Assembly (NCBI GenBank): GCA_046331425.1
Contig: JAXLQU010000002.1
Location: 6,398-70,397 of the forward strand
Direction: 5' to 3'
From: Acidobacteriota bacterium
Lineage (GTDB): Bacteria > Acidobacteriota > Polarisedimenticolia > J045
DNA: 64,000 nt
Made by a program: the position numbers and the translations under genes
The notes under the pieces: generated by a model
Seen by the model: the letters and a program-made list of their open reading frames with translations, nothing else
What the model was told of the DNA's origin: nothing
The model's database searches: none
Shown: piece after piece, positions 26,700-44,699 of the stretch
Numbering within the stretch: the first letter of the stretch is position 1
Layout of the letters: every line of letters starts with the position of its first letter

Positions 26700-26944
26700 T
26701 TGGTGGAAGCCCGTAGATGTGGTCCGAGACTTCGCGCGGCAGATGTGACTGGTCCGAGAAGCGGGTCGGTGAGTCCGAGCCGCGAGGCCTCGCGTGATTC
26801 GGCGAAGTCCTCGCCATTGCTAGCGCGATCGACGGCGACAACGATCTTCGTACAGCAGGGGAAGATCGCTTGACGTCGTCCCCAAAAACGCTACTAGCCT
26901 TAACTTGAAAGCCGGCCAGATGGACCGGCTTCTAGGAGGTTGGT

Positions 26945-27124
26945 ATGAAGCGATCGAAGTACACGACGCATCGCTCTCGGCATACCGCGCACCACGCGCC
27001 GCGCTTCATGCACTGCGCTCCAAGCCATCCGACCGCGATCACGATGGGGGTGAAAAGGGAAGTCCGACGCCGACTCTCGCTGCCGGCTTGGAACGAAGAT
27101 ACCTCGCGCGTCCAGAGCGGCTGA
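26945..27124 (+). CDS. Small basic His-rich ORF (59 aa) with canonical Shine-Dalgarno, upstream of cas4-cas1
   Basis: GGAGG then 6 nt then ATG. MKRSKYTTHRSRHTAHHAPRFMHCAPSHPTAITMGVKREVRRRLSLPAWNEDTSRVQSG. Below the track's length cutoff. No homology recognised. Confidence 0.2.
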   Translation: MKRSKYTTHRSRHTAHHAPRFMHCAPSHPTAITMGVKREVRRRLSLPAWNEDTSRVQSG

Positions 27125-27271
27125 GCTCGATTCACAACGTCAGGTCACGGACTCCAGACGCACCTCAGCCCTGCCACGCCTTGGCACCTCCAGGGGTCGA
27201 CCCCGTGCCACAAAGCGGCCAAGGCCCATATTCCGATAGGGGGACTTCACATCGCACCGGGGGGTGCTGCC

Positions 27272-29008
27272 ATGGCCACAGCTTCTGTCTCGAACCCGCT
27301 ACTGCCCGTCCGAATGCTGAATGAGTTCGCGTACTGCCCACGGCTCTTCTACCTGATGCACGTCGAGGGCCTCTGGGCCGACAACGAGTACACCGAGGAA
27401 GGGCGCAACGTGCATCGTCGGCTGGATCGCGCCGTCGACGGCGTGCTCGACGCACCGGTCAAACGGCGATCCAAGGCAGAGACCGCGGAGGCAGCGCCCG
27501 CCGCCGATCTAGCAACCGAAGGAGATGAAGAGCCCAAGATCGCTCGGAGCGTTTCTCTGGGAAGCGAGCGACTCGGAATCACCGGAAAGCTCGACCTTGT
27601 CGCCGTCGATGCCGGTGAGGCCGTGCCGGTGGACACGAAACGCGGCCCGGTGCCTGAGAACCCGGAGCGCAGTTGGGAGCCGGACCGCATCCAGATCATG
27701 GCTCAGGCACTGCTGCTTCGAGAACACGGCTTCAGTTGTAAGCGTGGCGTGCTGTACTACGCCGGCTCTCGGCGGCGAGTTGACGTTCCGCTGACACCCG
27801 AACTCGAGGCGCGAACGCTGAGCATCATCGAGGCTGCACGTACGGCAACGTACTCGCGCTCGCTGCCACCGCCACTGGTCGACAGCAAGAAGTGCCCTGG
27901 TTGCTCGCTCGTCGGGATCTGCCTGCCAGACGAGACCAACCTGCTGCGCAGCGTGCCGGCTGATCCCGCCGCTCCCGAAGTTCGCCGCATGTACCCCGCG
28001 CGTGCTGAGGCTCGGCCGCTGTATGTTCAGGAGCACGGTGCCACTGTCGGCAAGAGCGGCGAGAACATCATCGTTCGAAAGGAAGGGCAGAAACTCGCTG
28101 ACGTGAAGTTGAAGGACCTGGCCGAGCTCGTGATCTGCGGCAACGTCACCGTGAGCGAGCCCGCAATACACACGCTTTGCGAAGCCGGCGTCCCGATCGT
28201 TCACCTGAGTGGCGGGAATTGGTTCTACGGAATCACCAACGGGATTCAACTGCGCAATGCCTCCGACCGCGCCGCACAGTTCTCTGCTGCTGCCGATCCT
28301 GAGCGCTGCGAACGAATCGCCAAGGCGTTCGTTGCCGCGAAGATCACGAATCAACGAACAATGCTGCGACGAAACGGTGAAGGGATCCCCGAGAGCGTTT
28401 TCGCTGACTTGAAGCGCGTGGCAGACCAGTTGGATTCGTCGTCCACGCTGGGCGGAGTGCTTGGCGTGGAAGGCGCCGCGGCCGCGATCTATTTCGGGCA
28501 CTTTGGGAAAATGCTCAGGCCTCGCGCACAGACCATGGCGTTCGACTTCGAGGCCCGCAACCGTCGGCCGCCGCTGGATCCTGTAAACGCGATGTTGTCA
28601 TTTGCCTACGCAATGCTCTCGAAGGAATGCACCGTTGCGCTGCTCGCGGCCGGCCTGGACCCGTATTGGGGATTGATGCATCAACCACGACACGGCCGGC
28701 CCGCGCTAGCACTTGATTTGATGGAGGAGTTTCGGCCGATCGTTGCCGACAGCGCGGTTGTGACCGTGATCAACACTGGCGTTGTAATTCCGGAAGACTT
28801 CGTGATTGGTGTAAACAGTTGCGCGCTGAAGCCGACGGGGCGCAAGCGATTCATCGAGGCGTATGAAGCACGCCTCGACCAAATGGTCACACACCCGATC
28901 TTCAACTACCGATGTACGTGGCGGCAGGTGATCCGGCTGCAAGCGCGACTACTTGGGCGCCACCTGCGAGGTGATCTCCCGGTGTACCCAGGGATGACAA
29001 CACGATGA
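27272..29008 (+). CDS. cas4-cas1: Cas4-Cas1 fusion protein
   Basis: N-terminal Cas4 (LNEFAYCPRLFYLMHVEG; C-terminal cysteine cluster KKCPGCSLVGICLP). C-terminal Cas1 (MAFDFEARNRRPPLDPVNAMLSFAYAMLSKE...GRPALALDLMEEFRPIVADS). This fusion is a hallmark of subtype I-G/I-U. Confidence 0.9.
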   Translation: MATASVSNPLLPVRMLNEFAYCPRLFYLMHVEGLWADNEYTEEGRNVHRRLDRAVDGVLDAPVKRRSKAETAEAAPAADLATEGDEEPKIARSVSLGSERLGITGKLDLVAVDAGEAVPVDTKRGPVPENPERSWEPDRIQIMAQALLLREHGFSCKRGVLYYAGSRRRVDVPLTPELEARTLSIIEAARTATYSRSLPPPLVDSKKCPGCSLVGICLPDETNLLRSVPADPAAPEVRRMYPARAEARPLYVQEHGATVGKSGENIIVRKEGQKLADVKLKDLAELVICGNVTVSEPAIHTLCEAGVPIVHLSGGNWFYGITNGIQLRNASDRAAQFSAAADPERCERIAKAFVAAKITNQRTMLRRNGEGIPESVFADLKRVADQLDSSSTLGGVLGVEGAAAAIYFGHFGKMLRPRAQTMAFDFEARNRRPPLDPVNAMLSFAYAMLSKECTVALLAAGLDPYWGLMHQPRHGRPALALDLMEEFRPIVADSAVVTVINTGVVIPEDFVIGVNSCALKPTGRKRFIEAYEARLDQMVTHPIFNYRCTWRQVIRLQARLLGRHLRGDLPVYPGMTTR

Positions 29009-29295
29009 GCCGGCGCCGATTTCTCGTGACGTACGACATCACCAAGGACAAGGTCCGTACTCAACTCTTCAAGCTGCTGCGGGGGTGGGGTGATCATGTC
29101 CAATACAGCGTGTTCATCTGCGAACTCACCGCACGCGAAAGAGCGCGGCTCGTGGGCCGCGTGAACGACATCGTGAACCATGACGAGGACCAGGTGCTGT
29201 TTGTCGACTTGGGTCTGGCGGCGGAGGAGCCGGCGACGGTCGTGGACAGCATTGGACGTGCGTACGAGCCTCCGAGTCAGGCGCTTGTTGTGTGA
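29005..29295 (+). CDS. cas2: Cas2
   Basis: MSRRRFLVTYDITKDKVRTQLFKLLRGWGDHVQYSVFICELT. ATGA overlap with cas4-cas1. Confidence 0.9.
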   Translation: MSRRRFLVTYDITKDKVRTQLFKLLRGWGDHVQYSVFICELTARERARLVGRVNDIVNHDEDQVLFVDLGLAAEEPATVVDSIGRAYEPPSQALVV

Positions 29296-29496
29296 GAATC
29301 ACGGCCCGGGAGGCGTTGCGAGCGGCCTGGTGGTGGAGAAACTCCAGGAGCCGCCCGAGGTCTTTGAAAACACGAGGTTTAGCGGGCGCTGGTGGCGAGT
29401 TGACTCCCCGGATCGGCGACCGCTGTTGTTCGGGCGGAAAGCCGCTCGAAAACTGAAGTACAAGTGCCAGAAAAAAGGCGGGTTACTATGCCCTCC
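29296..29496 (+). promoter_or_regulatory. CRISPR leader
   Basis: Non-coding stretch between cas2 and the first repeat, ending in the A-rich CCAGAAAAAAGGCGGGTTACTATGCCCTCC. The degenerate terminal repeat lies at the opposite end of the array. Confidence 0.5.
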
Positions 29497-31971
29497 ATCT
29501 CCGCGTTCGAAAGAACGCGGCCCCATTGAAGCCCCGTCCACATTCGCGTTGGATAAAGTCTGTGGCGCGGATCTCCGCGTTCGAAAGAACGCGGCCCCAT
29601 TGAAGCTAGGTACAGGTGGTAGTCGTCAGGCACGTTCCAGAATCTCCGCGTTCGAAAGAACGCGGCCCCATGAAGCAAGGCAAACTCGCTGCCGAACGCA
29701 ACCTCGAGGATCATCTCCGCGTTCGAAAGAACGCGGCCCCATTGAAGCGAGTCCTTCTGCGAGAAGCGTGGTGGAGCCCCAACCGGATCTCCGCGTTCGA
29801 AAGAACGCGGCCCATGAAGCGCCGCGACCCCCCACAGCGCTATGCCAGTTATGCCAACATCTCCGCGTTCGAAAGAACGCGGCCCCATTGAAGCGTCGGC
29901 TCCGGGCTGGACGCTGTGCGGAGCAACGGCAGATCTCCGCGTTCGAAGAGAACGCGGCCCCATTGAAGCACGTCGGAGAGGTCGGCAAAGACTCGACGGT
30001 GGTGTATCTCCGCGTTCGAAAGAACGCGGCCCCATTGAAGCGTCTTTCCGCTGGTCGCTGGCTTTCGTCGGCGTCTGGATCTCCGCGTTCGAAAGAACGC
30101 GGCCCCATTGAAGCCCTTCTTCCTTGGCGTCGTGGAGCGTCTCGGCGTCGATCTCCGCGTTCGAAAGAACGCGGCCCCATTGGCTTGATGAAGTTATACT
30201 CGCCCGTGGGATCTACCATGATCTCCGCGTTCGAAAGAACGCGGCCCCATTGAAGCGCATCACCGGACCACGTTGGCAGCGGCAGCTGATCTCCGCGTTC
30301 GAAAGAACGCGGCCCCATTGAAGCTGCAAGGGAGCAGCTCTCACTTGAGTTCAGATGAGTATCTCCGCGTTCGAAAGAACGCGTACTAGCCGACCGGAAT
30401 GCCGGCTATGCAGTGAGTTCTTTCCGATCTCCGCGTTCGAAAGAACGCGGCCCCATTGAAGCCGGCCAGAACTCGACATCGGCGCCGCGCTCGACGCCGA
30501 TCTCCGCGTTCGAAAGAACGCGGCCCCATTGAAGCGGCCCTGCGCCCGGTGAACGCCTGCCAACGGCGGACCATCTCCGCGTTCGAAAGAACGCGCGCCC
30601 CATGCTACTCTTCCTTCGACTCAATCTTCCGCGCCTGACTCGATCTCCGCGTTCGAAAGAACGCGGCCCCATTGAAGCCCGCGATTGGAATGTCCGCTGC
30701 GGTTGGTTCGGCCGATCTCCGCGTTCGAAAGAACGCGGCCCCATTGAAGCGACCGAGAGTTACGCGGTTTTGCGTCGCGGCGCGGTGATCTCCGCGTTCG
30801 AAAGAACGCGGCCCCATTGAAGCTCCTTGTGACGCTCGAGCGCGACGTCGGTCTCGCTATCTCCGCGTTCGAAAGAACGCGGCCCCATTGAAGCTCGCAG
30901 GCCGCCGCCGCCGCAGTCGGACCGGGGACATCTCCGCGTTCGAAAGAACGCGGCCCCATTGAAGCGCGTTGCCGCCGTAGAGCAGGTTGGTGACACCGAG
31001 ATCTCCGCGTTCGAAAGAACGCGGCGGCTCGGAGTCGAGTGATCCACGTACGGATCTCGCTGAACATCTCCGCGTTCGAAAGAACGCGGCCCCATTGAAG
31101 CCCTCCGACGCGGACACCACGAGTCACCGGCGCACCCATCTCCGCGTTCGAAAGAACGCGGCCCCATGAAGCGGACGGTCCCTTCCGAGCAGCAGAAGTG
31201 CTCAGCGACATCTCCGCGTTCGAAAGAACGCGGCCCCATTGAAGCGTCCGGACCATCGATCGTCCGATGGTCGCTCGCGCGATCTCCGCGTTCGAAAGAA
31301 CGCGGCCCCATTGAAGCTGCAACAGGCCAGCGCTCGACGACAAGCCATCGCCAGATCTCCGCGTTCGAAGAACGCGGCCCCATTGAAGCCGGTACTCGGC
31401 GGTGCTGCATACGTCACGGACAGTATCTCCGCGTTCGAAAGAACGCGGCCCCATTGAAGCGCCGCTCACCTGGGAGTGCCCATCGATCACTTCTTCAGAT
31501 CTCCGCGTTCGAAAGAACGCGGCCCCATTGAAGCGTATCGGTACAGGATCACCTCACGATGGAGCGGCGACATCTCCGCGTTCGAAAGAACGCGGCCCCA
31601 TTGAAGCACTGTGCTCCACGCCATCGGATCACCTCACGCCGAGATCTCCGCGTTCGAAAGAACGCGGCCCCATTGAAGCTTCCGTTCTCGTCATGGATAA
31701 TCCTTTGTAACCGTCGATCTCCGCGTTCGAAAGAACGCGGCCCCATTGAAGCCCGCTGATTGCGCGCGCGCTGATACGCCTGCGCGTGTATCTCCGCGTT
31801 CGAAAGAACGCGGCCCCATTGAAGCACCGCTCCGCCGCCGCGGGATGCAGTGCCGTTCCCGGTATCTCCGCGTTCGAAAGAACGCGGCCCCATTGAAGCG
31901 CGCTCTAGATCGTCCATGACCAGAGCGTAGTCCTCATCTCCGCGTTCGAAAGAACGCGGGTGCCGTCTCTT
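29497..31971 (+). CRISPR. CRISPR array: 35 repeats (36 nt), 34 spacers (33-47 nt, mostly 35-38)
   Basis: Consensus ATCTCCGCGTTCGAAAGAACGCGGCCCCATTGAAGC with internal perfect 8-bp stem CCGCGTTC/GAACGCGG plus GAAA loop. 3' end ATTGAAGC resembles the I-C/I-U ATTGAAAC handle. Repeat starts at 29497, 29571, 29642 ... 31936. Terminal repeat (31936) diverges after 24 nt. Repeats at 30361, 30583 and 31001 lack the 3' third. Others carry 1-nt indels. Confidence 0.95.
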
Positions 31972-32168
31972 CCTTGCCATCAGTTCCTCCCTCAGGGGAG
32001 GGACTCTTCACGATTAGAGTGTCAACTCAAACAAGGGGGACGGGGTACCACAGGCCATACAGGCTCTGCTGCAATCATCACTTCCAAGCTCAATCGCAAG
32101 CACCAAGACGAACCGACCTGACCCGGAGCCGTAGCCAAAACGAGAAGACCGTCGCTTCGCTCCGACAG

Positions 32169-32202
32169 GTGATCACGATCAAACGGGAGCAGTGATCACG
32201 AT
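32169..32202 (+). promoter_or_regulatory. Direct repeat GTGATCACGAT x2 (each with TGATCA palindrome) upstream of the HTH/cas3 unit; candidate operator
   Basis: GTGATCACGATcaaacgggagcaGTGATCACGAT, 27-60 nt upstream of the ATG at 32229, in a locally GC-poor segment. Confidence 0.3.
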
Positions 32203-32228
32203 GACCGGAATCGCCATCGTGAGTTAGA

Positions 32229-32423
32229 ATGCCTGCGGAAATCCTGACCATCGAGGAGGTCGCCACGTTACTTAGACCCGCAGCGAAGTCCATCGATGCC
32301 TTTGTCCAGGCCGGCAAGGTTGCGGCGTTCAAGCTGTGGGGGCACTAGCGCATCAGACGCACCGAACTTGATCGGTGGGTAGACGCGCAGCCGCGCGATA
32401 GGGGGGGTGGTCGTGGCGAGTAA
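32229..32423 (+). pseudogene. Excisionase/MerR-like HTH mini-ORF interrupted by an in-frame amber codon at the conserved Trp position (or a readthrough gene)
   Basis: MPAEILTIEEVATLLRPAAKSIDAFVQAGKVAAFKLWGH-TAG-RIRRTELDRWVDAQPRD. Matches the HTH_17 pattern (LTxxEVAxLL...GxWRIRRxDLDxW) with TAG where W is expected. The ORF ends overlapping the cas3 start. Confidence 0.45.
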
Positions 32424-35400
32424 GAAGGCGCCAGCTTCTGTCTCGGATGCGGGTGACCCGCAGGCGGTGGACTGGCTCCGGGGTGCGCTCGGACTCAATG
32501 CAACGCAAGCGCCGTTTCCATGGCAGGTCGAGCTGCTTCGACGTTTTCTCCAAGACGAAGCTGTTTCTTCTATCGACATCCCTACGGGCCTCGGAAAGAC
32601 GGCCGTCATGGCCGTGTGGCTCGTCGCGCGAACACTCGGAGCAGCGCTGCCGCGACGCCTCGTCTACGTCGTCGATCGTCGGGCAGTTGTCGATCAAGCG
32701 ACCGAAGTCGCCGAAGCACTCAGCGCCTGGGTGGCGAAAGAGCCCCGTGTCGCAGACGCCCTGGGTCTTGACGATCGCCCTCTGCCCATCTCGACGCTGC
32801 GTGGCCAACATGTCGACAACCGCGCATGGCTTGAGGACCCATCGTCGCCCGCGATCATCGTCGGCACCGTCGACATGGTGGGCTCTCGGCTTCTCTTCTC
32901 GGGCTACGGCGTCTCCCCGAAGATGCGTCCCTACCATGCAGGGCTCCTCGGCGCGGACGCGCTCGTCGTTCTCGACGAGGCCCACTTGGTCCCTGCGTTC
33001 GAAGATCTCCTTCGACAGATCGAGCGTGGAACCGACACGTTCGGGCCGAAGGAACTCTCCCTTCGCGCGCTGATCCCGCCGTTCAGACTACTTCCGCTCT
33101 CGGCCACAGGACGCCAGACCGACGCTACGACGCTGACTCTCTCCGACGACGATCGAAGAGACGAGATCGTCAAGCAGCGTCTGACCGCGAAGAAGAAGCT
33201 GAGCACCGTAGATATCACCAACGCCGCGGAAGCCACCGCCACCCCGGCTGACGTCAAGAATGCTGACGATGCAGACGAGGCGACCAGGAGGAACGAGGGC
33301 CACAAGCTTGCCGGTGTTATCGCTAGGCAGGCATGGGAGTTGACGAAGCAAGGCTCGGCACGGGTGCGTTGCCTCGTGTTCTGTAACGCGCGCAAGGACG
33401 CAACCGTTGTCGCTGCCGAACTACGCAACCTGGCGAAGTCGGCCACCGGGCTCGAGCCCACCATCGAGCTCTTCGTCGGCGGACGCCGCGTGAAAGAGCG
33501 CACCCAAGCGCGCGATGCTCTCGCCCGACTCGGCTTCCTCGCGGGCAAAGCGGTGAACTTGGAGCGCTCGGCCTTTCTGATCGCAACGTCGGCCGGAGAG
33601 GTCGGAGTGGACCTCGACGCAGACCACATGGTCTGTGACCTCGTCGCGTGGGAGCGCATGGTCCAGCGCCTCGGCCGGGTGAACCGGCGAGGTGATGGAG
33701 ATGCGAATGTCATCGTCGTGGTGGACAGCGAGCCCGCGCCCTCTGACACCACGACGAAGGCCCTCGAGAAGAGGGAGGTTTCCAACGACGCGAAGGGACA
33801 ACTCGATGAGTTGACGAAGGAGCTTAACGCACTCCAGGATGCGAAAGCCTCCGTTCCGAAAGGCCAGAAGAAATCTGCCGACGCCAAAGCTGCCGAGGAG
33901 AAGCGCAGGCAAGCCGAGAAGGACCTGAAGAAGTCGATTTCCGCGTGTCAGAAGCGCATCAATGCTTTCAAGGACGCGGATGCGAAGGTCGTGGCGCGCC
34001 ATGAGGCCGCGGCTGCGCAACATCACGCCCTTCGCGCGTTGCTCACGGCGGTCGGAGAGAAGGGTAGCCTGAGCCCTGACGCCCTACTTACGCTGCGTGA
34101 CCGCCTAGACCTCGCCGATGCACTGCGCGCCGCAACGACGGTCGAGCCGCTTCGGCCCGAGCTGACGCGCCCGCTGGTCGAGGCGTGGTCGATGACTTCG
34201 CTTGACGAGCACCCGGGACGGCCTGCGGTCGATCCGTGGTTGCGCGGCTTTCGTCCGAACGATCTGCCACAGACCACGGTTGTCTGGCGACGACATCTGC
34301 CCGTGCGGGCTGACGGCTCCTTCGACGTGAAGGCGGCAAAGCAATTCTTCGAGGCTGCACCTCCTCATACGAGCGAGCAACTCGAGACTGAGACGCACCT
34401 CGTGCTCGAGTGGCTCATCAAACGCGCAGCGGCCACTAGCAAGGCCCCGGGCGATGTGGTGTTGCAGGGTGCGCAGAGGGTCGTCGCGATCGCCCTCGGA
34501 GGGCGCGGCGAGCCGAAAGGGTGGCGCACCCTCAGCGAGATCACCTTCGCGAAGAGCCAAGGCAAAAACGAGAACAATGAGGCTAAGAAGGCTCGCGAGC
34601 AACGCGTGAAGGAACTCGAAAAGCTCTTGGTCGGAGCGACGCTAATCATCGACGCGCGCCTTGGAGGACTCACTGACGGCCTCCTGAGCGAACAGACCGA
34701 CACGACCGCGGAAGCCTCGGACGATGGCTCGTCGATGTGGCTCGGTCGCCCTGACGTTGCGGGTGTGCCCGTGACGGGGTTCCGCATCCGTGTATTGGGT
34801 GCTAACGAAGAGGACCAGTCAGCGTGGCGAACGACGCCAGGAACCGGATGGGGACGACGCCATTTGTTTGTTACGAACGTAGCGGACGGTGAGCCATCTG
34901 CGGCGCTAGTGATCGAGGGGTGGTCGGGCGACGCCGCGACGGAAGATGAGCGCGCTGAAGCAAACCGTCCACAGCAACTCAATGAGCACCAGAGCTGGGC
35001 TGAAGGCTGCGCGAGGCAGATAGCCCAGCGTCTTGGCATCGAGAAGGATCCTTGCGCGGATCTCATCGCTTTCGCAGCTCGTCATCATGACGAAGGAAAG
35101 CGCGCCGCGTGGTGGCAGCGTGCGTTCAAGGCCCCCATCGATGGTCGCCCTTACGCGAAGACGAAGGGGCCGATCGACTTCGACCTCCTCGACGGCTATC
35201 GACACGAGTTGGGCTCGCTGCCGTACGTGGAGGCCCACGACGACTTCAAGGCGCTCGGCGCGGACGACCAAGATTTCGTTCTCCATCTCGTAGCGGCGCA
35301 TCATGGTTTCGCCAGACCCATGATCGGCACGAGCGGCTGCGACGATGCGCCACCGTCGATTGTCGAGGAGCGTGCGCGGGCGGTCGCGCTTCGATTCGCG

Positions 35401-35523
35401 AGGCTCTCGAGGCGATGGGGGCCGTGGGGGCTCGCATGGTGGGAGGCGCTGCTCCGCGCGGCAGACCAGACCGCGTCGCGCCGCAACCAGCGGACAGCGA
35501 CAGCGCGGAAGGATCTGCCGTGA
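32407..35523 (+). CDS. cas3: Cas3 helicase with C-terminal HD nuclease domain (I-G/I-U architecture)
   Basis: GTG start. Walker A IPTGLGKTAV. DEAH box VVLDEAHL. C-terminal HD motifs AARHHDEGK ... HLVAAHHGF. Confidence 0.9.
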   Translation: MVVASKKAPASVSDAGDPQAVDWLRGALGLNATQAPFPWQVELLRRFLQDEAVSSIDIPTGLGKTAVMAVWLVARTLGAALPRRLVYVVDRRAVVDQATEVAEALSAWVAKEPRVADALGLDDRPLPISTLRGQHVDNRAWLEDPSSPAIIVGTVDMVGSRLLFSGYGVSPKMRPYHAGLLGADALVVLDEAHLVPAFEDLLRQIERGTDTFGPKELSLRALIPPFRLLPLSATGRQTDATTLTLSDDDRRDEIVKQRLTAKKKLSTVDITNAAEATATPADVKNADDADEATRRNEGHKLAGVIARQAWELTKQGSARVRCLVFCNARKDATVVAAELRNLAKSATGLEPTIELFVGGRRVKERTQARDALARLGFLAGKAVNLERSAFLIATSAGEVGVDLDADHMVCDLVAWERMVQRLGRVNRRGDGDANVIVVVDSEPAPSDTTTKALEKREVSNDAKGQLDELTKELNALQDAKASVPKGQKKSADAKAAEEKRRQAEKDLKKSISACQKRINAFKDADAKVVARHEAAAAQHHALRALLTAVGEKGSLSPDALLTLRDRLDLADALRAATTVEPLRPELTRPLVEAWSMTSLDEHPGRPAVDPWLRGFRPNDLPQTTVVWRRHLPVRADGSFDVKAAKQFFEAAPPHTSEQLETETHLVLEWLIKRAAATSKAPGDVVLQGAQRVVAIALGGRGEPKGWRTLSEITFAKSQGKNENNEAKKAREQRVKELEKLLVGATLIIDARLGGLTDGLLSEQTDTTAEASDDGSSMWLGRPDVAGVPVTGFRIRVLGANEEDQSAWRTTPGTGWGRRHLFVTNVADGEPSAALVIEGWSGDAATEDERAEANRPQQLNEHQSWAEGCARQIAQRLGIEKDPCADLIAFAARHHDEGKRAAWWQRAFKAPIDGRPYAKTKGPIDFDLLDGYRHELGSLPYVEAHDDFKALGADDQDFVLHLVAAHHGFARPMIGTSGCDDAPPSIVEERARAVALRFARLSRRWGPWGLAWWEALLRAADQTASRRNQRTATARKDLP

Positions 35524-36497
35524 TGACACATACGACTGCATCCATCCCCGTCGACCTCAAGAGCCCGGGTCAGGTGCTCGCCTGCGTGGGCTTCATCGAG
35601 GCGGCAGAAGTACTGCTGGGCGGGGTCGAGGCGCATTTTGATTGGAGCGACGCGCAAGCGAAGTTCGTGCTTCGCGCTGACGGTAACGAAAACCCGTTCG
35701 AGGTCGTCCTTGAGTTCTTGTCGAAGGCGAAGATCAGCGAACTGACGCCCGTTGGCTACGTCGAGGGTGGTGCAGCCGACGGTGACGACAGTGAAGAGGA
35801 AGACGCCACGCCCAGCGAACCTGAAGACGGTGATGAGTCCGACGACGACCCGGGCGAGGTGCTAGGGCGCGTCACGACCCCAGCATTTCCTTTGGGCGAA
35901 GGCGACCGGAATGCACTTCCCGTCCAGCTCGTGCACGAAGGACGTTGCCTCACCGTCAGTCATTGGGCCGACGGCTCGTCGCGGGACGACTTCAAGCTTT
36001 ACTCGGGCAACCGCTCGGCCAATCGCATCGCTACGCAGATGCTCCAAGGTGTGCGTGCGAAGCTCAAGAAGAACCAGTCGAGCGGTGACCTCAAAAATCG
36101 AGGGTTGCAGCAGCTTTGGCGGGAGAACCGAGCGGCGCTCCTGAAGGCACCGTTCGACTTGGTCACGCCGATGGGCGGTAGCTTCAACTTCGATCCACGC
36201 GGCGCCTGGACCGCGATCGACGCGGGCTACTCACCAAACACGCAGAAAGACGGCATCGCGGCCTCGCCGGTTGTCGAGATCCTGGCAGCGATCGGGCTCG
36301 AACACGCGCGCCCTGACCAATACGAGACTCGCGAGGTTCGTTACGCAGTCTGGGGACAGCCGTTGCCGCCAATGCTCGCGCGCGCTGCGCTTGCAGGCGC
36401 CGGTGTGAAGCTGTCGGTGCGCCGGTTCCAGTTCGAGCTCGATCTCTCCGGCAAGAACAAAGTCACGACGTTCGCACAAGAGGAGACCCAACCATGA
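35523..36497 (+). CDS. Putative Cascade subunit 1 (about 324 aa; Csb/Cas7- or Cas11/Cas8u-like, unassigned), acidic low-complexity insert
   Basis: ATG overlaps the cas3 stop (TGATG). Start MTHTTASIPVDLKSPGQVLACVGFIEAAEVL. Acidic tract GGAADGDDSEEEDATPSEPEDGDESDDDPGE. G-rich segment PMGGSFNFDPRGAW. No confident family motif recognised. Confidence 0.5.
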   Translation: MTHTTASIPVDLKSPGQVLACVGFIEAAEVLLGGVEAHFDWSDAQAKFVLRADGNENPFEVVLEFLSKAKISELTPVGYVEGGAADGDDSEEEDATPSEPEDGDESDDDPGEVLGRVTTPAFPLGEGDRNALPVQLVHEGRCLTVSHWADGSSRDDFKLYSGNRSANRIATQMLQGVRAKLKKNQSSGDLKNRGLQQLWRENRAALLKAPFDLVTPMGGSFNFDPRGAWTAIDAGYSPNTQKDGIAASPVVEILAAIGLEHARPDQYETREVRYAVWGQPLPPMLARAALAGAGVKLSVRRFQFELDLSGKNKVTTFAQEETQP

Positions 36498-37786
36498 CAT
36501 CGAAGGCCGCAGAAACCACCACTCCGTCGTTGAGCGAGGAGACCACCAAGCTCTTCGATTCTTGGCTCGCCAGCGAGGGGCCAGTTGCTCTCCGTCTGCG
36601 CCAGAAGCTCCGCCCCGTCGAGGCTGATGAGAGCGGTCGCGGCGTCATCTTCCCGCCGACCTATGCCGACATCGGCTACAACATCGATACGCTCGCGGAC
36701 GGAACGCGCGTCGCGACGATCGACACGGTCGGCTCGCAGGCTAACCGTCTGGAGCCGATCTTCAAGAAGGCAGGTGAGGGGCAGCCCGAGAATCCGCTTG
36801 CGAGCCTCGTTCCGCAGATCGAGATCGTCTTGCACAAGGCCGGTGGCAAGAAGGGAAAGAAGAAGGAGACCGACGCGGCGGGCGAGGCCGACGCAACTGA
36901 GCACGTCGAGAAGCGTTCGCTCCTCGACCTCGCGCACCGCAGTGCGGACGCCGTCGTGCTCGCGAGCCCGACGCTTGCGCCTGAGATCGCCAAGGCATTC
37001 GAGGCACTGCGCAGCAAGGGGAACGCGGCTCCGCTCGCAGCCATCGCGCCGACCTCGCTGGTCTTTGGTGTGTGGGATTCGCGTGGCGGTACCGGCGAGA
37101 AACGACCTCGCTTGGTTCGCTCGATCATCCGCGCCTGGGACGTCGAGGTCCTTCACAGCGCCGCACAGTTCAACTCGGTGTGGAAGGCCCTGAGTGAGGA
37201 GCAGCAGAAGGAGCTCGCTGACGAGGAGAAGAAGAAGGGGAAGCTGGAGCTGTCGGCGGTCGGCCTGAAGGACGCTCCATCCACCTTTCGAAAGACCGAC
37301 AAGATCCCGCAGTTCGTCGCGGGGGCCCCGAACCCAGAAGCGCGCGTACTCGGTGGTGTCCTCGCGAAGGGGGCCATCGAACGCGACGTCACGATCAACC
37401 TCGTCGCGCTCCGTGGCATCCGTGGCAAGGACGCCGCCGAGACGACCGAGGTTCAGAAGTACCTATTGGGTCTCGCCCTTCTAGCGGCCACGGTCGACCT
37501 TGAGTTGTTCCTCCGCGAGGGATGCCTGCTCCGTTACGCGGACCAGGCGGACAAGTGGACGGCGGTACCACGCCGCGGTGAGCCTGGCGACGCAGACCAG
37601 GTGACGCTCCCAAAGGATCTCGTCGCCTATGCGACGGCGGCAGCCGCACCGTTCAAGGCGAAGTGGCCTGATGGGCTGAAGAAGGACGGCGCCCCCGTCC
37701 TCGAGCATGAGTTCGACATAAAGAAGGCAAAGGAGCTGCTCGCGAAGAAGAAGGACGACGAGACACCGGCGACCCCCCCGGCATGA
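36494..37786 (+). CDS. Putative Cascade subunit 2 (430 aa; Cas7-like backbone candidate), Lys-rich insert
   Basis: ATGA overlap with the upstream gene. TIDTVGSQANRLEPIF and SLVFGVWDSRGGTGEKRPRLVRSIIRAWD recall Cas7 RNA-binding loops. K-rich insert GGKKGKKKETD. Assignment tentative. Confidence 0.5.
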   Translation: MTSKAAETTTPSLSEETTKLFDSWLASEGPVALRLRQKLRPVEADESGRGVIFPPTYADIGYNIDTLADGTRVATIDTVGSQANRLEPIFKKAGEGQPENPLASLVPQIEIVLHKAGGKKGKKKETDAAGEADATEHVEKRSLLDLAHRSADAVVLASPTLAPEIAKAFEALRSKGNAAPLAAIAPTSLVFGVWDSRGGTGEKRPRLVRSIIRAWDVEVLHSAAQFNSVWKALSEEQQKELADEEKKKGKLELSAVGLKDAPSTFRKTDKIPQFVAGAPNPEARVLGGVLAKGAIERDVTINLVALRGIRGKDAAETTEVQKYLLGLALLAATVDLELFLREGCLLRYADQADKWTAVPRRGEPGDADQVTLPKDLVAYATAAAAPFKAKWPDGLKKDGAPVLEHEFDIKKAKELLAKKKDDETPATPPA

Positions 37787-39975
37787 CGCACTACCTGACC
37801 ATTAATGTGCGCGCCCATGAGGGGCGGTACCACGGAGCAGGCGACGAGCTGCCGTCGCCATTTCGCTTGTTTCAGTCGCTCATAGCGGGCGCCGGGATCA
37901 GCGGACCGCTCGACGATCATACGAAGAGGGCGCTCGTCTGGCTCGAAGGGCTCCCGGATGCCCCGCTCGTCGCGTCACCGCGTCTCGCGCGAGGTCAGAC
38001 GGTCACGATGTTCATGCCGAACAACGACCTTGACAAGTTCGGCGGCGACGTTCGGAACATCGCGAAGACGCGTGGTGCGCAGAAGGTCTGGAGGCCGCGG
38101 TATTTCGACGCGTCGGTGCCATGGATCTACGCGTGGCCCTTCGCCAACGTTGACGAGGGAGACACGCACGCCAAGAAGATCTGCGCGCTCGCCGACAAGC
38201 TCTACCAACTTGGGCGGGGTGTCGACATGGCCTGGGCCTGGGGTGACCTTCTCAACGAAGCCGCGCTCGAAGCGCGGCTCGCAGAGTACAACGGCGTCGT
38301 TCGGCGACCGAGCGTGGGCGATGGCCTTAAGCTCGCATGTCCGAGCGAGGGTTCGTTCGAGAGTCTCGAACGCCGATATCACTCTCCGAGATTCCGGACC
38401 GAGAGCGGCCAGCGCGTCTTCGTCCAAAAGCCGAAGCCGAGTTATCGACAGATCACTTACGAGAGCCCGCCTGTTCGCCACGTCTTCGAGCTTCGAACTT
38501 CAACTGACTCGGAGCGTCGTGTTGCGTGGCCCCTTGTGGGCGCCTCGGCGCTCGTCGTAGCGGCACGTGAAGCGGCGCGCGCACGACTGTGCAGCGCCAT
38601 GCCGAATCGGATCCATGATGTGGAGCTACACCTCGTGGGTCGTAAGCCCGATGGTACGAACGCGGTGCCTGCTGAGAGTCGCGTGCGGATCATCCCAATC
38701 CCATCCATCGGGATGCACTATGCCGACCGCGCGATTCGGCGTCTCCTCGTCGAGATCCCTGCGGCGTGCCCGCTTCGCAGCGAGGATGTTCGCTGGGCGT
38801 TCTCGGGTGCGGAGCTCTTCGATCCAGACACCGGCGAGGTGAAGGACGTGCTGCTGTCGCCATCAGACGAGGACGACATGCTCCGGCACTACGGCGTTGG
38901 CGCCGGGGCGCGAGTGTTCCGGTCTGTCACGCCAGTGGTACTCCCCGAGGAGGGCAAGCGTCGGCGCATCGAGCCTACTCGAAGGCTCTCGGAGGCCAAG
39001 CTTGGCCTCGAGCGCGTCGTAGAGATTTCGGGAGCGAGAGCGGCAGTCGTTCAAGCGCTCCGTCACGCGGGCGTGAGCGCTCCAGCGGAGAGCGTTCGCC
39101 TGCAGCGCGAGCCTTTCGAGGCGGCCGGCTCTCGCGTCGAGCCGTTTGCCGAGGGAACACGGTTTGAGAAGGAGCGCCTCTGGCACGTCGAGATTACGTT
39201 CGGCGTCCCGGTCGAGGGCCCGCTGTTGCTCGGTGATGGGCGCTTTCTCGGGCTAGGGCTCATGGCACCAGTGAGAGATGTTGTGCCGGGGGTACATGCA
39301 CTCGTAATCACTGAGGGCCTCGCCGGTCACGCCGAGACGCTCGATGTTGTACGAGCGCTGCGCCGTGCGGTCATGGCGAGAGTGCAGTCAACTCTCGGCA
39401 CGCGCGAGCGGCTCGCACCGTTCTTCAGCGGTCACGCAGAGGACGGCGCCCCTGTTCGGCGGTCTCGAACTTCGCATCTCTCGTTCGCCTTCGAGCCGGA
39501 CTCGCGAAGGCTACTCATCCTCGCTCCTCATGTGGTCGAGCGACGCGCGCCGATGTCTGATGAGCTCGACCACCTCCGCACTCTTGATGCTGCGCTCGTA
39601 GGGTTCTGCGAGCTGCACGCGGGGTACGCTGGAGTCTTCTCCGTTTCCCCTGCTGCGATCGAAAAACTCCAGGACTCGCTCTTCGGGCATTCGCGCGTGT
39701 GGAGGACCATCACGCCATACGTCGTCACGCGCCATGCGAAGGGCGGCGCAGCGACGGAGGCACTTGCAGCCGATGTCCGCGCGGAGTGCCGTCGCCTCGG
39801 ACTGCCCGAGCCCAGAGTGGAATCAAGAAACGTTCGGGGCGCATCTGGGATTGGACTCACGGGCTACGCGACGCTGTTTTTCGAGCGGCGCGTCGCGGGA
39901 CCCCTAGTGCTCGGACGAACTCGGTATCTCGGAGGCGGGTTCTTCCGCCCCGACGAGGAACCCAACCAACCATGA
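37783..39975 (+). CDS. Putative Cascade large subunit (730 aa): two RAMP-like G-rich loops, so a Cas5-Cas6 (Csb1-like) fusion and/or Cas8u (Csx17-like)
   Basis: ATGA overlap. N-terminus MTHYLTINVRAHEGRYHGAGDELPSPFRLFQSL (RAMP-like first strand). G-rich loops GDGRFLGLGLMAPV (about aa 480) and TRYLGGGFF at the extreme C-terminus, as in Cas5/Cas6. Confidence 0.5.
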   Translation: MTHYLTINVRAHEGRYHGAGDELPSPFRLFQSLIAGAGISGPLDDHTKRALVWLEGLPDAPLVASPRLARGQTVTMFMPNNDLDKFGGDVRNIAKTRGAQKVWRPRYFDASVPWIYAWPFANVDEGDTHAKKICALADKLYQLGRGVDMAWAWGDLLNEAALEARLAEYNGVVRRPSVGDGLKLACPSEGSFESLERRYHSPRFRTESGQRVFVQKPKPSYRQITYESPPVRHVFELRTSTDSERRVAWPLVGASALVVAAREAARARLCSAMPNRIHDVELHLVGRKPDGTNAVPAESRVRIIPIPSIGMHYADRAIRRLLVEIPAACPLRSEDVRWAFSGAELFDPDTGEVKDVLLSPSDEDDMLRHYGVGAGARVFRSVTPVVLPEEGKRRRIEPTRRLSEAKLGLERVVEISGARAAVVQALRHAGVSAPAESVRLQREPFEAAGSRVEPFAEGTRFEKERLWHVEITFGVPVEGPLLLGDGRFLGLGLMAPVRDVVPGVHALVITEGLAGHAETLDVVRALRRAVMARVQSTLGTRERLAPFFSGHAEDGAPVRRSRTSHLSFAFEPDSRRLLILAPHVVERRAPMSDELDHLRTLDAALVGFCELHAGYAGVFSVSPAAIEKLQDSLFGHSRVWRTITPYVVTRHAKGGAATEALAADVRAECRRLGLPEPRVESRNVRGASGIGLTGYATLFFERRVAGPLVLGRTRYLGGGFFRPDEEPNQP

Positions 39976-40377: not shown

Positions 40378-42147
40378 ATGAAGCTTGTCCCGTCGCGCGT
40401 CTTGCTCTCTCTCCTGTCCTCTTTACTACTGCTCACGAGCGGACTGGCCCTCGCCGGCAACGTCACCAACTCGGGTGACGATGGCCGTACCGGGTGGTAC
40501 CCCGATGCCGGCTATATCACGCCGGCAATCGTCAGCTCGCCATCGTTCGGACAACGCTGGAACACCACGCTCAACGGCCAGATCTACGGGCAGCCGCTCG
40601 TCGCGATCGGGCGGGTCTTCTATGTCACGCAAACCAACTGGGTCTACAGCCTCGACGCCGATACCGGAGCGATCCTCTGGTCCAAGAACCTCGGAACACC
40701 GTGGAACTCCGCCGATGTTGGGTGCAACAACATCGCCCCAACCGTCGGCATCACCGTGACACCGGTCATCGATGACGACACCAACGTCATGTACCTGGTC
40801 AACAAGACATACGACGCCGGAATCGGCGCCAGCTACATGCACGCTTTGGACTTGATTTCCGGTGCAGAGAAGCCGGGCTTTCCGGTCAAGATTCAAGGCA
40901 ACGCGCAGAACAGCCCCAGCCAGCCGTACGACAGCGTGCATCAACACGCGCGCGTTGGGTTGCTGTTGATGAACGGCGTGGTCTATGCCGGATTCGGAGC
41001 GCACTGCGATATCGGTCCGTGGCAAGGCTGGGTCTTCGGTATCGATACGAGCGGCCAGATCAAAGCGCGATGGACCAGTCGCGGTGCGGTCAATCAAAAC
41101 GGCGCGGCGATCTGGATGTCGGGGAACGGTTTGGTGTCGGATGGTCCAGGGCGAATCATCTTTGCCACCGGCAACGGCGGCGGACAGACCGTGGCGACGC
41201 CTGGGAATACACCGCCTACGAACTGCGGTGAGTGTGTCGAGCGACTCGATGTTCAGCCCGATGGAACACTCATCGCGAAAGACTTCTTCTCCCCCTGGAA
41301 CGCCGCTGGCACCTTTGCGCAAAACGGCCTCGATCTGTTCGACCTCGATCTCAGTTCGAGCGGTGGCGCCGTGATGCCGCAACCGTACTTCGGGACCACG
41401 ACGTATCCGCACCTCATGGTTCAGGCCGGCAAGGAGGGTTATCTGTACCTTCTCAACCGCGATGATCTCGGCGGCTTGAAGCAAGCGAGCGCGACTTCCG
41501 ACAAAGTAATCCAGCGACTCGGCAAGTTTGCAGGTGTTTGGTCGCGACCGGGTGTGTGGCCTGGCGACGGTGGCTACGTCTATCTCTCGGGCAATGGAGC
41601 GCAGCTTCGCGGCTTCAAGTACAGCGTCGACGGCAGCAACAAGCCGGTGTTGACGCAGACCGGAGTGTCGCTCGCGACGTTCGGTTACGGTAGCGGCGCA
41701 CCGGTGATTACGAGCGATGGGACGCGTGCCGGTTCAGCGATCGTCTGGCACAGCTACTCGCAGGATGATTCTGGAATCAATGCGGCGCTACGCGCGTACG
41801 ACCCGGTTCCTTCGGGAACCAACCTGATTCTGCGCGCCAGCTTCAACATCGGAACGATCGCCAAGTATCACAATCCAACGGCGGCTCGCGGGTTGGTGTT
41901 CATCGGGACACGCGATGCGCATGCAATTGCCTTCGGCGGCCCGCCGGCTCAGCTCACGGTGCAGAAAGGGGTCAGCGGCATGATCCGCTTGTCGTGGAGC
42001 AGCAATCTTTCGCCTTACACACTGCGCCGCGCCAACGATGCTCGTTTCCGCACCAGCCCGTCGACGCTGGTCGATCATCAAGCACAAACCAGCTTCGATG
42101 ATCCGGTCGCGGATGATGGGAACAGCTACTTCTACTTGGTGAATTGA
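40378..42147 (+). CDS. Secreted PQQ-like beta-propeller repeat protein with C-terminal FN3-like module
   Basis: Signal peptide MKLVPSRVLLSLLSSLLLLTSGLALA. PQQ-repeat signature (GQIYGQPLVAIGRVFYVTQTNWVYSLDADTGAILWS). C-terminus ...IRLSWSS...NSYFYLVN. Confidence 0.7.
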   Translation: MKLVPSRVLLSLLSSLLLLTSGLALAGNVTNSGDDGRTGWYPDAGYITPAIVSSPSFGQRWNTTLNGQIYGQPLVAIGRVFYVTQTNWVYSLDADTGAILWSKNLGTPWNSADVGCNNIAPTVGITVTPVIDDDTNVMYLVNKTYDAGIGASYMHALDLISGAEKPGFPVKIQGNAQNSPSQPYDSVHQHARVGLLLMNGVVYAGFGAHCDIGPWQGWVFGIDTSGQIKARWTSRGAVNQNGAAIWMSGNGLVSDGPGRIIFATGNGGGQTVATPGNTPPTNCGECVERLDVQPDGTLIAKDFFSPWNAAGTFAQNGLDLFDLDLSSSGGAVMPQPYFGTTTYPHLMVQAGKEGYLYLLNRDDLGGLKQASATSDKVIQRLGKFAGVWSRPGVWPGDGGYVYLSGNGAQLRGFKYSVDGSNKPVLTQTGVSLATFGYGSGAPVITSDGTRAGSAIVWHSYSQDDSGINAALRAYDPVPSGTNLILRASFNIGTIAKYHNPTAARGLVFIGTRDAHAIAFGGPPAQLTVQKGVSGMIRLSWSSNLSPYTLRRANDARFRTSPSTLVDHQAQTSFDDPVADDGNSYFYLVN

Positions 42148-42164
42148 GGAGCGTTCTTCACTAG

Positions 42165-44699
42165 TTAGAGTCCCTTCAAGGCCTCACGCCCCGCCTTGAC
42201 CCGCGCATCGTCCTCGCCTGCGGTCGCGGCGAGCGCGGCGACGCCGTCTTGCAACAGCGACTTGGCCTCGGCGGTGCGCAAACCGCGCGCGACTAGATGA
42301 CTCCCGAGCGCGATCATTGTGCTGGCGGTGTTGGCGTCCTTGTCGCCGAACGCCTTGCGCCGGATGCGCAACGCTTCCCGAATCTGCGCTTCGGCACCGA
42401 CTCCGTCGCGGCGCGCGTCGAGCACGCCAGCCAGCGCCATGGTGACGTACGCGAGATCGGGGTGATCGGGCCCCATCCCGCCGCGCATCAAACCGATTCC
42501 CTCACGAAGGGCTGCTTCCGCCTCCGCGAGTCGATTTGCACGCGCCATCACCGTCCCCATGTTGCAGTACGTACGACCGACCGTGGGATCGTTCGGTCCC
42601 AGCGACTCTCTGCGGATCGCTGCGACGTTGCGCAGCAGATCGATCGTTTTGTCGGTCTGACCCTGTCGGAAGTAAACCGCTCCCAGGTTCTCGAGTGCTA
42701 CCGCGACTTGCGGGTGTTTGTCACCCAACATCCTCTTGTCCTGCTCGACGACTGCTTTCAGCATCGCCTCGGCGCCGGCGAAGTCCCCCTTTTGCATACG
42801 CACCAGACCCAAGCTGTTCTGCGCGTACGCGAGCATCGGGTTGTCGGGCCCCAGAGTTTTCTCGAAGAGCTTCGTCGACTCCAAGCACGCCGCCTCTGCT
42901 TCGTCGAACTTCCCGCGTGTGGAGAGAATGTCGCAGAGCACCTTCAGGCTCTCGGCCATGTAGTACGTCGGCGGGCCGGTTTGCGAGCGGCCAACGTTGA
43001 TCGCTTCGCGTATCGGCGCCTCGGCCTCGTCGATCTTCCCCGAGAAATAGAGGGCCAAGGCGAGGTCATCGAGTCGTTCCGACAGCCGTGGATCGGTCGG
43101 ATCCGCGCCACGCTGTGCCTCGATTCCGGAGCGCGCCGCTGCGATTGCGTCCTCGTATCGGCCGGTCAGATGGAGCAACCGGCTGAGCCGGCCCCAACTC
43201 GTCGCGGTGTCGGCGTCGTTCGGTCCAAGATGCTTGACGCGCAGCTCGATCGCACGGCGAATCAGCGGCTCGGCCTTCTCGTATTCGCCGAGATTCATGT
43301 ACGTTGCCGAGATCGAATCGAGCGTTGCCGCCGCGACCACGGGCTGCGAGGTGAACTGCGCCTCGATCCGTGGGATCGATTTTTCGAGCGCCTCGAGCAC
43401 CGTGATCTTCCGCTCTCCTCCGGCATACGGGTTGGGAGTTTCGAGCGTTGCTTGCAGGAACTGATTGATCGCGGTCGCTTTTTCGGTTTCGGACTTGGCG
43501 CGGTCGCGCTCTTCGGCGATGCGCCTGGCTTGATACGTCATCGTCACGGCGGTCCCGAGCAGCAGAACGAGCAGCGATGCCGCGAACGCGGTAGGGAGCG
43601 GATTGCGCCGCACGAGCTTGCGGAGTTGATCGACGGTGCTGGGCGGCCGCGCCAGGATCGGTTGATCGGCGAGGTAGCGGTGCAGGTCATCGGCCAGCGC
43701 GGCGGCACTGCTATATCGATCGTCGGGATTCTTCTCGATCGCTTTGCTGACGATGGTTTCGAGGTCGGGGTCGAGTCGTCGCGCGCCCTTCCACACGTTG
43801 CGCAACGGAACGGGGCGCGCTTGGTCGATGGTGCGCAGCGCCTCGAGGATCGACATCGACGACAGCGCATGCGGGAGCATCGACGAAAGCATCTCGTAGA
43901 GGATCACGCCGAGCGCATAGACATCGGTGCGCAGGTCGATCTGTTCGGGAATCCCGCGCGCTTGCTCGGGGCTCATGTAGTTGAGCGTTCCGCGGATCGC
44001 TCCGACCTCGGTCACTTGGGTGACGTTGACGTCGCCGTCGGTGATTCGTGCCAGACCGAAGTCGAGAATCTTGACGTGCGATTCGACGCTCCCTGACTCC
44101 GAGTGACTGCCGGCGTGCGTTGCATCGCCGACGATCAGATTCGATGGCTTGAGATCGCGGTGGATTACGCCCCGTTGATGTGCGTAGTGGACCGCCTCGG
44201 CGATGCCGGCCAGCAGGGAGAGTCGTCGCCGAACTTCATCGGGGTCGAGTGTCTGCCGCTCACGCAGGTGCTCGGAGAGTGTGGCGCCGCGAACGAGTTC
44301 CATCGCGAAGTAGTGGCGACCCTCCGCCGTGCGCCCCGAGTCGTAGATCCGCGCGATCATCGGATGCTCGAGCCGCGCCAACACCTCGACCTCGCGGCGG
44401 AACATCGCGAGCTGAAGCTCGCTGATCGACGCCTCGCCACGAATCACCTTGAGCGCGACGATGCGTTTGAGCGACTGCTGCTCCGCTTCGTAGACGACTC
44501 CCATGCCGCCGCGACCGAGCAGGCCGAGGATTCGGTAATCGCCGATTCGATCGGGCAGCTCGGGCGCGACCTGTTCGCGCTCCTCGCCGAGTTGCGTGGC
44601 GTCATCGTCTTTGGAGTGAGCCGCAGGGACCAGCTTCGTTTCCGGTAACTCTGGGTCTGGTCCGTCCTTCTCGATCATCCGACCTCGTCTCCCTGGCAA
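42165..44699 (-). CDS. Serine/threonine protein kinase with TM segment and C-terminal TPR repeats
   Basis: YRILGLLGRGGMGVVYEA, VALKVI, HRDLKPSNLIVG, DFGLAR, SPEQ. TM LLVLLLGTAVTMTY. Many TPR units. Confidence 0.85.
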   Translation of the reverse strand: MPGRRGRMIEKDGPDPELPETKLVPAAHSKDDDATQLGEEREQVAPELPDRIGDYRILGLLGRGGMGVVYEAEQQSLKRIVALKVIRGEASISELQLAMFRREVEVLARLEHPMIARIYDSGRTAEGRHYFAMELVRGATLSEHLRERQTLDPDEVRRRLSLLAGIAEAVHYAHQRGVIHRDLKPSNLIVGDATHAGSHSESGSVESHVKILDFGLARITDGDVNVTQVTEVGAIRGTLNYMSPEQARGIPEQIDLRTDVYALGVILYEMLSSMLPHALSSMSILEALRTIDQARPVPLRNVWKGARRLDPDLETIVSKAIEKNPDDRYSSAAALADDLHRYLADQPILARPPSTVDQLRKLVRRNPLPTAFAASLLVLLLGTAVTMTYQARRIAEERDRAKSETEKATAINQFLQATLETPNPYAGGERKITVLEALEKSIPRIEAQFTSQPVVAAATLDSISATYMNLGEYEKAEPLIRRAIELRVKHLGPNDADTATSWGRLSRLLHLTGRYEDAIAAARSGIEAQRGADPTDPRLSERLDDLALALYFSGKIDEAEAPIREAINVGRSQTGPPTYYMAESLKVLCDILSTRGKFDEAEAACLESTKLFEKTLGPDNPMLAYAQNSLGLVRMQKGDFAGAEAMLKAVVEQDKRMLGDKHPQVAVALENLGAVYFRQGQTDKTIDLLRNVAAIRRESLGPNDPTVGRTYCNMGTVMARANRLAEAEAALREGIGLMRGGMGPDHPDLAYVTMALAGVLDARRDGVGAEAQIREALRIRRKAFGDKDANTASTMIALGSHLVARGLRTAEAKSLLQDGVAALAATAGEDDARVKAGREALKGL

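Follow-up and report, generated by a model that had tools for sequence, protein, structure and literature searches.

Type I-G (formerly I-U) is the least characterised of the type I CRISPR-Cas subtypes. The closest described systems are those of Geobacter sulfurreducens, which uses a TTN protospacer adjacent motif (PAM) (PMC6547450), Thioalkalivibrio sulfidiphilus (Tsu) and Bifidobacterium animalis. In the Tsu complex (Shangguan et al., 2022, PMC9638904), Csb2 consists of an N-terminal Cas5-like part and a C-terminal Cas6, with a boundary at R260 and a catalytic H503, and the 5′ handle of the guide is contacted by Cas7.1 alone among the subunits; three size variants of Cas8g are known, the small GSU0052 family among them (PMC9638904). 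The Csb2 of B. animalis is likewise described as Cas5-like (residues 1–250) and Cas6-like (residues 251–545) (Chhetry & Anand, 2022, bioRxiv 10.1101/2022.08.19.504415). Here we describe a CRISPR-Cas locus at positions 27272–39975 of a 64,000-nucleotide (nt) stretch of DNA from the metagenome-assembled genome of an Acidobacteriota bacterium (contig JAXLQU010000002.1), referred to below as the window. We conclude that the locus is almost certainly a complete type I-G system of the Geobacter GSU0051–54 kind, with a small Cas8g2. An initial annotation had flagged it as possibly an undescribed variant; on analysis it is instead a standard type I-G system that is already annotated, whose Csb2 protein carries a second Cas6-fold domain.

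The order of features on the forward strand is cas4/cas1, cas2, leader, an array of 35 repeats, a small helix-turn-helix (HTH) open reading frame (ORF), cas3, and three coupled genes for proteins of 324, 430 and 730 amino acids (aa):

27272–29008, + strand: cas4/cas1 fusion (Cas4g/Cas1g), 578 aa
29005–29295, + strand: cas2, 96 aa, with an ATGA overlap with cas4/1
29296–29496, + strand: leader, the 201-nt gap from cas2 to the first repeat
29497–31958, + strand: CRISPR array, 35 repeats and 34 spacers
32229–32411, + strand: small HTH_17 ORF, a probable pseudogene, with an in-frame TAG at 32346–32348
32413–35523, + strand: cas3g, 1036 aa, N-terminal helicase and C-terminal HD nuclease
35523–36497, + strand: cas8g2, the small ‘large subunit’ of the GSU0052/Csb3 type, 324 aa
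36494–37786, + strand: cas7g (csb1), 430 aa
37783–39975, + strand: csb2 (Cas5/Cas6 fusion, long form), 730 aa

This order was already given in the initial annotation, and both the ORFs and the repeats were confirmed at these positions; the coordinates also bear out its observation that the array lies between the adaptation and interference modules. It further described the three effector genes as coupled by ATGA. This holds for the cas8/cas7 and cas7/csb2 overlaps, which together with cas4/1–cas2 make three such junctions, but the cas3/cas8 junction reads GTGATG. The cas3 ORF has an alternative start at 32407 (1038 aa); the start at 32413 agrees with the 1036-aa gene call in a sister assembly described below. 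No standalone cas5, cas6 or cas11 was found among the ORFs of 27272–39975, in agreement with the earlier remark that a separate cas6 is missing.

Genes were assigned using the curated cut-offs of NCBIfam, together with Pfam and PADLOC profiles. Six of the six Cas proteins exceed the cut-offs of I-G-specific NCBIfam models, and their best PADLOC matches are Cas1g, Cas2g, Cas3g, Cas8g, Cas7g and Cas56g, which confirms the subtype. The Cas4-Cas1 fusion is matched over its full length by NF049935 (cas4g_cas1g) at 719 bits (cut-off 560); Pfam places Cas_Cas4 at aa 15–218 and Cas_Cas1 at aa 250–532, and PADLOC Cas1g scores 587 bits. Cas2 matches TIGR01573 (41.5 bits, cut-off 24.5), PF09827 (65 bits) and PADLOC Cas2g (94.6 bits). 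Cas3g matches TIGR02621 (cas3_GSU0051; 581 bits, cut-off 400), PADLOC Cas3g (573 bits) and the Pfam families Cas3-like_C_2, DEAD and Cas3_HD. Its helicase match spans aa 34–476 and its HD domain about aa 865–1009 (TIGR01596, aa 869–1009), so that the HD domain is indeed C-terminal.

The three effector proteins had been thought unassignable, a view that we do not share, because all of them have NCBIfam matches above cut-off and their genes follow the GSU0051–54 order. Cas8g2 matches TIGR04106 (cas8c_GSU0052) at 146 bits (cut-off 125) over model positions 1–268 of 282, and PADLOC Cas8g at 148 bits. It is encoded directly 3′ of cas3 in 13 related loci (12, plus one from Cereibacter, L019), at 31–84% identity; these and the other related loci were annotated using the proteins of the window and a simple array finder, and three copies of the window locus (L001–L003) were excluded from the set. 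Cas7g matches TIGR02570 (cas7_GSU0053) at 102 bits (cut-off 38), PF09617 at 109 bits (aa 33–218), and PADLOC Cas7/Cas7g at 112 bits. Its C-terminal region of approximately 210 aa is conserved along its full length in relatives; no model matched it, including in a Pfam search of this region. Csb2, which is the signature gene of I-G, matches TIGR02165 (GSU0054) at 313 bits (cut-off 45, model positions 1–492), PF09609, and PADLOC Cas56g at 316 bits. The effector order cas3g-cas8g2-cas7g-csb2 is thus the canonical GSU0051–54 order. The initial annotation had swapped the names of two of these families: Csb1 is Cas7, and Csb2 is Cas5/6. It had also named matches to Csx17, Csb2 and Csb1 in I-G order as the outcome that would speak against novelty. 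In substance this is what we find, except that the large subunit is of the small GSU0052 type and is not Csx17.

We note that three of the proteins contain low-complexity inserts. Cas8g2 has a strongly acidic low-complexity insert, DGDDSEEEDATPSEPEDGDESDDDPGE, at approximately aa 75–115 (35745–35865), and Cas7g a lysine-rich one at approximately aa 115–135 (36835–36900). In Cas3g, a K/A/E-rich insert at approximately aa 480–600 (~33850–34200), probably a coiled coil, lies between the helicase and the C-terminal part. An apparent deletion of 99 aa from Cas7g in one copy of the locus (L001) was rejected, as the stretch is a run of N in that assembly.

The repeat of the array, ATCTCCGCGTTCGAAAGAACGCGGCCCCATTGAAGC, is 36 nt long and occurs in 25 perfect copies, compared to none expected in shuffled sequences. 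The 34 spacers range from 32 to 38 nt in length, with a mode of 36–37. As RNA, the repeat folds into an 8-base-pair (bp) stem capped by a GAAA loop, after which come CCCC and AUUGAAGC; the repeat handle ATTGAAGC had been read correctly in the initial annotation. Between loci, the repeat stems vary by compensatory changes and the 3′ CCATTGAAGC is kept. The array is polarised, with a terminal repeat (31936–31958) that is degenerate past the stem at the end nearest cas3, and spacer turnover at the end nearest cas2. The leader is identified by its position and by this polarity. It contains a motif, GCCGCTCGAAAA (29444–29455, approximately 45–55 nt 5′ of the first repeat), which is conserved in two related loci (L004 and L007) whose leaders have otherwise diverged and which carry the same cas2-leader-array unit with a similar leader length.

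The sister assembly (GCA_964611105.1, locus L001) contains the same locus; leaving aside the leader end of the array, the two are 99.3–99.7% identical. The two arrays have 29 trailer-side spacers in common, in the same order. Their leader-proximal spacers differ, with five unique to the window (29533–29858) and two unique to the sister assembly (2093–2200). Such a pattern is what recent, polarised spacer acquisition leaves behind in strains that are diverging.

We consider it very unlikely that the locus is decaying or inactive, as might be argued from the damage to its repeats, the break in its HTH regulator and the position of the array between cas1-cas2 and the effectors. Nine of the 34 internal repeats (29640–31390) are altered by indels or 3′ truncations, which would abolish the handle of the CRISPR RNA, and an in-frame stop interrupts the HTH_17 ORF in two assemblies. 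However, the repeats around the same spacers are perfect in the independently assembled sister locus (2055–4516). We therefore attribute the nine deviant repeats to consensus errors in the assembly of the window, and small indels may consequently exist elsewhere in the window; imprecise integration and array decay were rejected as explanations of the truncated repeats on the same grounds. Furthermore, each of the six cas ORFs is intact and, measured against its model, full-length, and the leader-end spacers differ between the assemblies, as ongoing acquisition predicts.

The small ORF upstream of cas3 was described in the initial annotation as an HTH mini-ORF. It does encode a true HTH_17 domain of the excisionase/MerR-like kind, in that the peptide with TAG read as tryptophan matches PF12728 at 38.1 bits (cut-off 27) over positions 2–50 of 51, but it is interrupted by the in-frame TAG, which stands where a tryptophan is expected and is also present in the sister assembly. 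An intact homologue occurs just 5′ of cas3 in one related locus (L010, 4142–4303), and a remnant in another (L004, 4518–4640). The ORF may be a decayed small regulator, and a small HTH_17 gene may be a recurrent regulator of this I-G subfamily.

Csb2 is longer than its family models, which stop at aa 497 and leave 233 aa beyond. Our analysis divides the protein into three domains:

aa 1–255: Cas5-like N-terminal domain
aa 256–497: canonical Cas6-like domain
aa 498–730 (DNA 39274–39972): second Cas6-fold domain

Searched alone, the tail matches the C-terminal half of TIGR02165 (62 bits, positions 257–437) and PADLOC Cas56g (74 bits, positions 222–430); it has no Pfam match. Profiles of the three regions were built from 87 diverse long-form proteins, and a comparison of aa 256–497 with aa 498–730 gave a probability of 98.4% and an E value of 9.7e-15 over 192 columns, while neither region aligned with the N-terminal domain. 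The AlphaFold2 model of the C-terminal domain alone is good, and the domain shows both elements expected of a Cas6 fold, namely a double ferredoxin/RRM fold and a C-terminal G-rich loop. Csb2 aa 498–730 is therefore a second Cas6-fold domain, a tandem paralogue of aa 256–497. The two RAMP-type G-rich loops seen by the initial annotation in the 730-aa protein (GDGRFLGLG at approximately aa 484–492, and GRTRYLGGG at approximately aa 711–719) are real, and are explained by the duplication. Its suggestion of a Cas5-Cas6(-Cas8?) fusion is right for Cas5 and Cas6, which are covered by TIGR02165, and wrong for Cas8, since the extra region is a Cas6 paralogue; for the same reason, that region contains no nested helical Cas11, which had also been proposed.

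The middle domain ends in a nearly invariant LWH...GDGRFLGLG motif. The extra domain lacks the WH, the GDGRF and its aspartate, and has its own invariant histidines H551, H565 and H651. Because the motifs of the middle domain are missing from it, the extra domain is probably non-catalytic. On the basis of these motifs, the middle domain is probably the nuclease, and the last domain probably an accessory RNA-binding or structural module.

Proteins of this form are common. The 730-aa Csb2 is 100% identical to the NCBI entry ‘MAG: type I-U CRISPR-associated protein Csb2 [Acidobacteriota bacterium]’. Homologues of 720–745 aa that are 69–86% identical to it make up more than 120 clusters (at 90% identity), many of them already named Csb2 or Cas5/Cas6; the taxa represented are Planctomycetota, Deltaproteobacteria, Gemmatimonadaceae, Kofleriaceae and Polyangiaceae. 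With the tail as query, 623 representative clusters were matched at E ≤ 1e-3, and their full-length members are 700–750 aa long. Long-form Csb2 is therefore widespread, in hundreds of mostly Cas8g2-type I-G loci. A short form also exists: in a Gemmatimonadaceae locus (L016), Csb2 is 513 aa long and stops right past the first G-rich loop. This locus has Cas8g2, and is an exception to any pairing of the long form with Cas8g2. We found no description of the Cas6 duplication in the literature, our coverage of which is incomplete; Csb2 is described there as a two-domain Cas5-Cas6 fusion.

We know of no structure for the Cas8g2 sub-variant, with its small large subunit and three-domain Csb2. As a tentative and rather doubtful suggestion, the extra Cas6-fold domain might bind a second RNA element, for which the 5′ handle is a candidate, or might compensate for the truncated Cas8g2, giving a different Cascade architecture. 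If this were true, the Cascade of this I-G sub-variant would differ in architecture from the solved one. The duplicated Cas6 domain is a concrete feature that can be tested in studies of how I-G Cascade is built or in the development of compact Cas3-based editors, and represents a modest lead for specialists.

The proposal of the initial annotation, that this is an undescribed I-G variant with novel effector subunits (possibly a Cas5-Cas6-Cas8 fusion with a nested Cas11), is in our view very unlikely. It draws some support from the facts that Pfam is blank for the 324-aa Cas8g2 and gives only partial matches for the 430-aa and 730-aa proteins, that sequence searches of the PDB with Csb2, Cas7g and Cas8g2 detected no related chain, and that Csb2 is approximately 200 aa longer than the characterised 545-aa protein of B. 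animalis. Against this, NCBIfam and PADLOC put all three proteins into I-G families above cut-offs; the additional 233 aa have a Cas6 fold and are a paralogue of the preceding domain, rather than Cas8 or a helical Cas11; and both GenBank and a Cereibacter plasmid already carry annotations for these proteins. The system is already known and already annotated in databases as I-G/I-U, and claims of novelty are unsupported.

The unusual layout does not alter this assignment to a standard I-G system. In the window, cas4/1-cas2-leader-array lies upstream of the interference operon, rather than in the canonical place downstream of csb2; however, locus layout is not a classification criterion for I-G. 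The interference operon of four genes, with its long Csb2, is kept in 12 other related loci at 45–85% identity. In three related loci (L004, L005 and L007), cas4/1-cas2 is found 3′ of csb2 and is encoded on the other strand. L004 and L007 have an array in the space from csb2 to cas2, oriented with cas2; in L005 no array was detected in the gap of approximately 300 nt between csb2 and cas2. In each locus where cas2 and an array could both be identified (the window, L004, L007 and L019), the two are neighbours, with a leader of approximately 190–250 nt. The unit of adaptation genes, leader and array is found on either side of the operon and in either orientation among close relatives, and is in canonical order on the Cereibacter plasmid, and we therefore conclude that the arrangement in the window is one permutation of two conserved modules and not a new system.

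We note that in L016 (282–3319), two ORFs of approximately 505 aa precede Cas8g2, with no tblastn match to Cas3g; the Cas3 of this interference module may be of another kind or may be split.

That the locus is a type I-C variant can be dismissed for practical purposes: although the Cas1 part matches the I-C model TIGR03640 (284 bits), the repeat handle is similar to the I-C ATTGAAAC, and GSU0053/54 loci were first described as I-C variants (Makarova 2011), the Cas1 score falls short of that model's cut-off (385) whereas the match to the I-G fusion model exceeds its own (719 against 560), there are no matches to Cas5d, Cas8c (Csd1) or Cas7c (Csd2), and Csb2, the signature of I-G, is present (PMC9638904).

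Several points weigh against reading the locus as a working I-G system. The locus appears to be active, to judge from its sequence. No protospacer was found in the window, the related loci, the phage and plasmid collections or IMG/VR, and hence no PAM is derivable. Compared with the related loci and the remainder of the window, the spacers gave only chance matches of 11–17 nt, a blastn search of the array against phage and plasmid collections gave no phage match, and three 28-nt spacer seeds gave no matches in IMG/VR. A scan for sigma-70 promoters showed no enrichment, and none was found in the leader or for the cas3 operon. The broken HTH gene, if it is a required activator, could affect expression. 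For Csb2, the N-terminal and middle parts are modelled poorly, with a predicted local distance difference test (pLDDT) score mostly below 50; the full-length AlphaFold2 model has a mean pLDDT of 53.9 and its N-terminal and middle domains are unusable (it was made from an alignment of 24 sequences at 69–86% identity). Because of this, the Cas5-like and Cas6-like nature of these domains rests on hidden Markov model matches and not on structure. Finally, the catalytic residues H520/D530 of B. animalis and H503 of Tsu would correspond to H468/D485 here, by their position near the end of the domain and not by alignment.

The array search also returned a GC-rich match of 40 nt at 90% identity to Streptomyces plasmids, which was judged to be due to chance because it runs into the repeat.

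The mechanism proposed for this I-G system is drawn from its homology with the systems characterised in Geobacter, Thioalkalivibrio and Bifidobacterium. Cas4/Cas1 and Cas2 would insert spacers of approximately 36 bp at the repeat nearest to cas2, probably choosing a TTN PAM, and the array would be transcribed on the forward strand from the leader. The Cas6-like part of Csb2 is expected to bind the 8-bp repeat hairpin and to cut 4 nt downstream, leaving an 8-nt 5′ handle of sequence AUUGAAGC. Cas7g would coat the guide, forming Cascade together with Csb2 and the small Cas8g2, and Cas3g, with its helicase and C-terminal HD domain, would nick and then degrade matching DNA.

The surroundings of the locus are unrelated to CRISPR. 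Flanking ORFs have no Cas matches in NCBIfam or PADLOC, the GC content of the locus (0.63) equals that of its flanks, and Rfam and tRNA scans of the window gave nothing. A 139-aa ORF with a TTG start (26905–27324) overlaps the start of cas4/cas1; it has no match to any Pfam, NCBIfam or PADLOC family, and is probably not a gene. The upstream flank (23940–26699) encodes a protein of 919 aa that contains two SEC-C motifs, DUF6930 and DUF7309, and the downstream flank (40378–47657) a PQQ-like β-propeller protein as well as two large Ser/Thr kinase-repeat proteins (TPR; WD40/Tricorn-like).

Among the described systems, that of G. sulfurreducens (GSU0051–54 and GSU0057–58) has the same Cas3g, Cas8g2, Cas7g, Csb2, Cas4/Cas1 fusion and Cas2 families (PMC6547450). 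The two share the order of their interference genes, the Geobacter construct being described as ‘cas3, cas8u2, cas7, cas5/6’ (Almendros et al., 2019, PMC6547450). Geobacter spacers are 36 bp long and the repeat ends in AGC, as in the window (PMC6547450). The difference is that cas4/1-cas2-leader-array follows the interference genes in Geobacter, whereas it precedes them in the window.

The Cereibacter sphaeroides plasmid p.C (CP031754.1) encodes homologues of all six proteins of the window, at 33–47% identity. Its order is canonical, annotated by the Prokaryotic Genome Annotation Pipeline as cas3u-cas8c-cas7u-cas5u6u-cas4/cas1-cas2, followed by the array. Its Cas8 is small (288 aa), its Csb2 is long and spans both Cas6-like domains (query aa 5–721), and its repeats end in ATTGAAGC, as do those of the window. 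Its Cas7 is 344 aa long, compared to 430 aa here, and it has WYL and XRE regulators upstream, where the window has the broken HTH_17 ORF.

The Tsu Cascade contains the same subunits, Csb2, Cas7, Cas8g and Cas3. Tsu Csb2 cuts 4 nt 3′ of the hairpin to leave an 8-nt handle (PMC9638904), and the repeat of the window permits the same geometry. Tsu has the large Cas8g1 (Csx17), whereas the window has the small Cas8g2; and the Csb2 of Tsu is described as a two-domain protein (PMC9638904), whereas that of the window has three domains. The same holds for B. animalis. Its catalytic H520 and D530 lie near the end of the Cas6 domain, and the WH...GDGRF motif of the window lies at the end of the middle domain, a correspondence of location and not of aligned residues. 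The B. animalis Csb2 is 545 aa long and has one Cas6 domain, while the Csb2 of the window, at 730 aa, has two.

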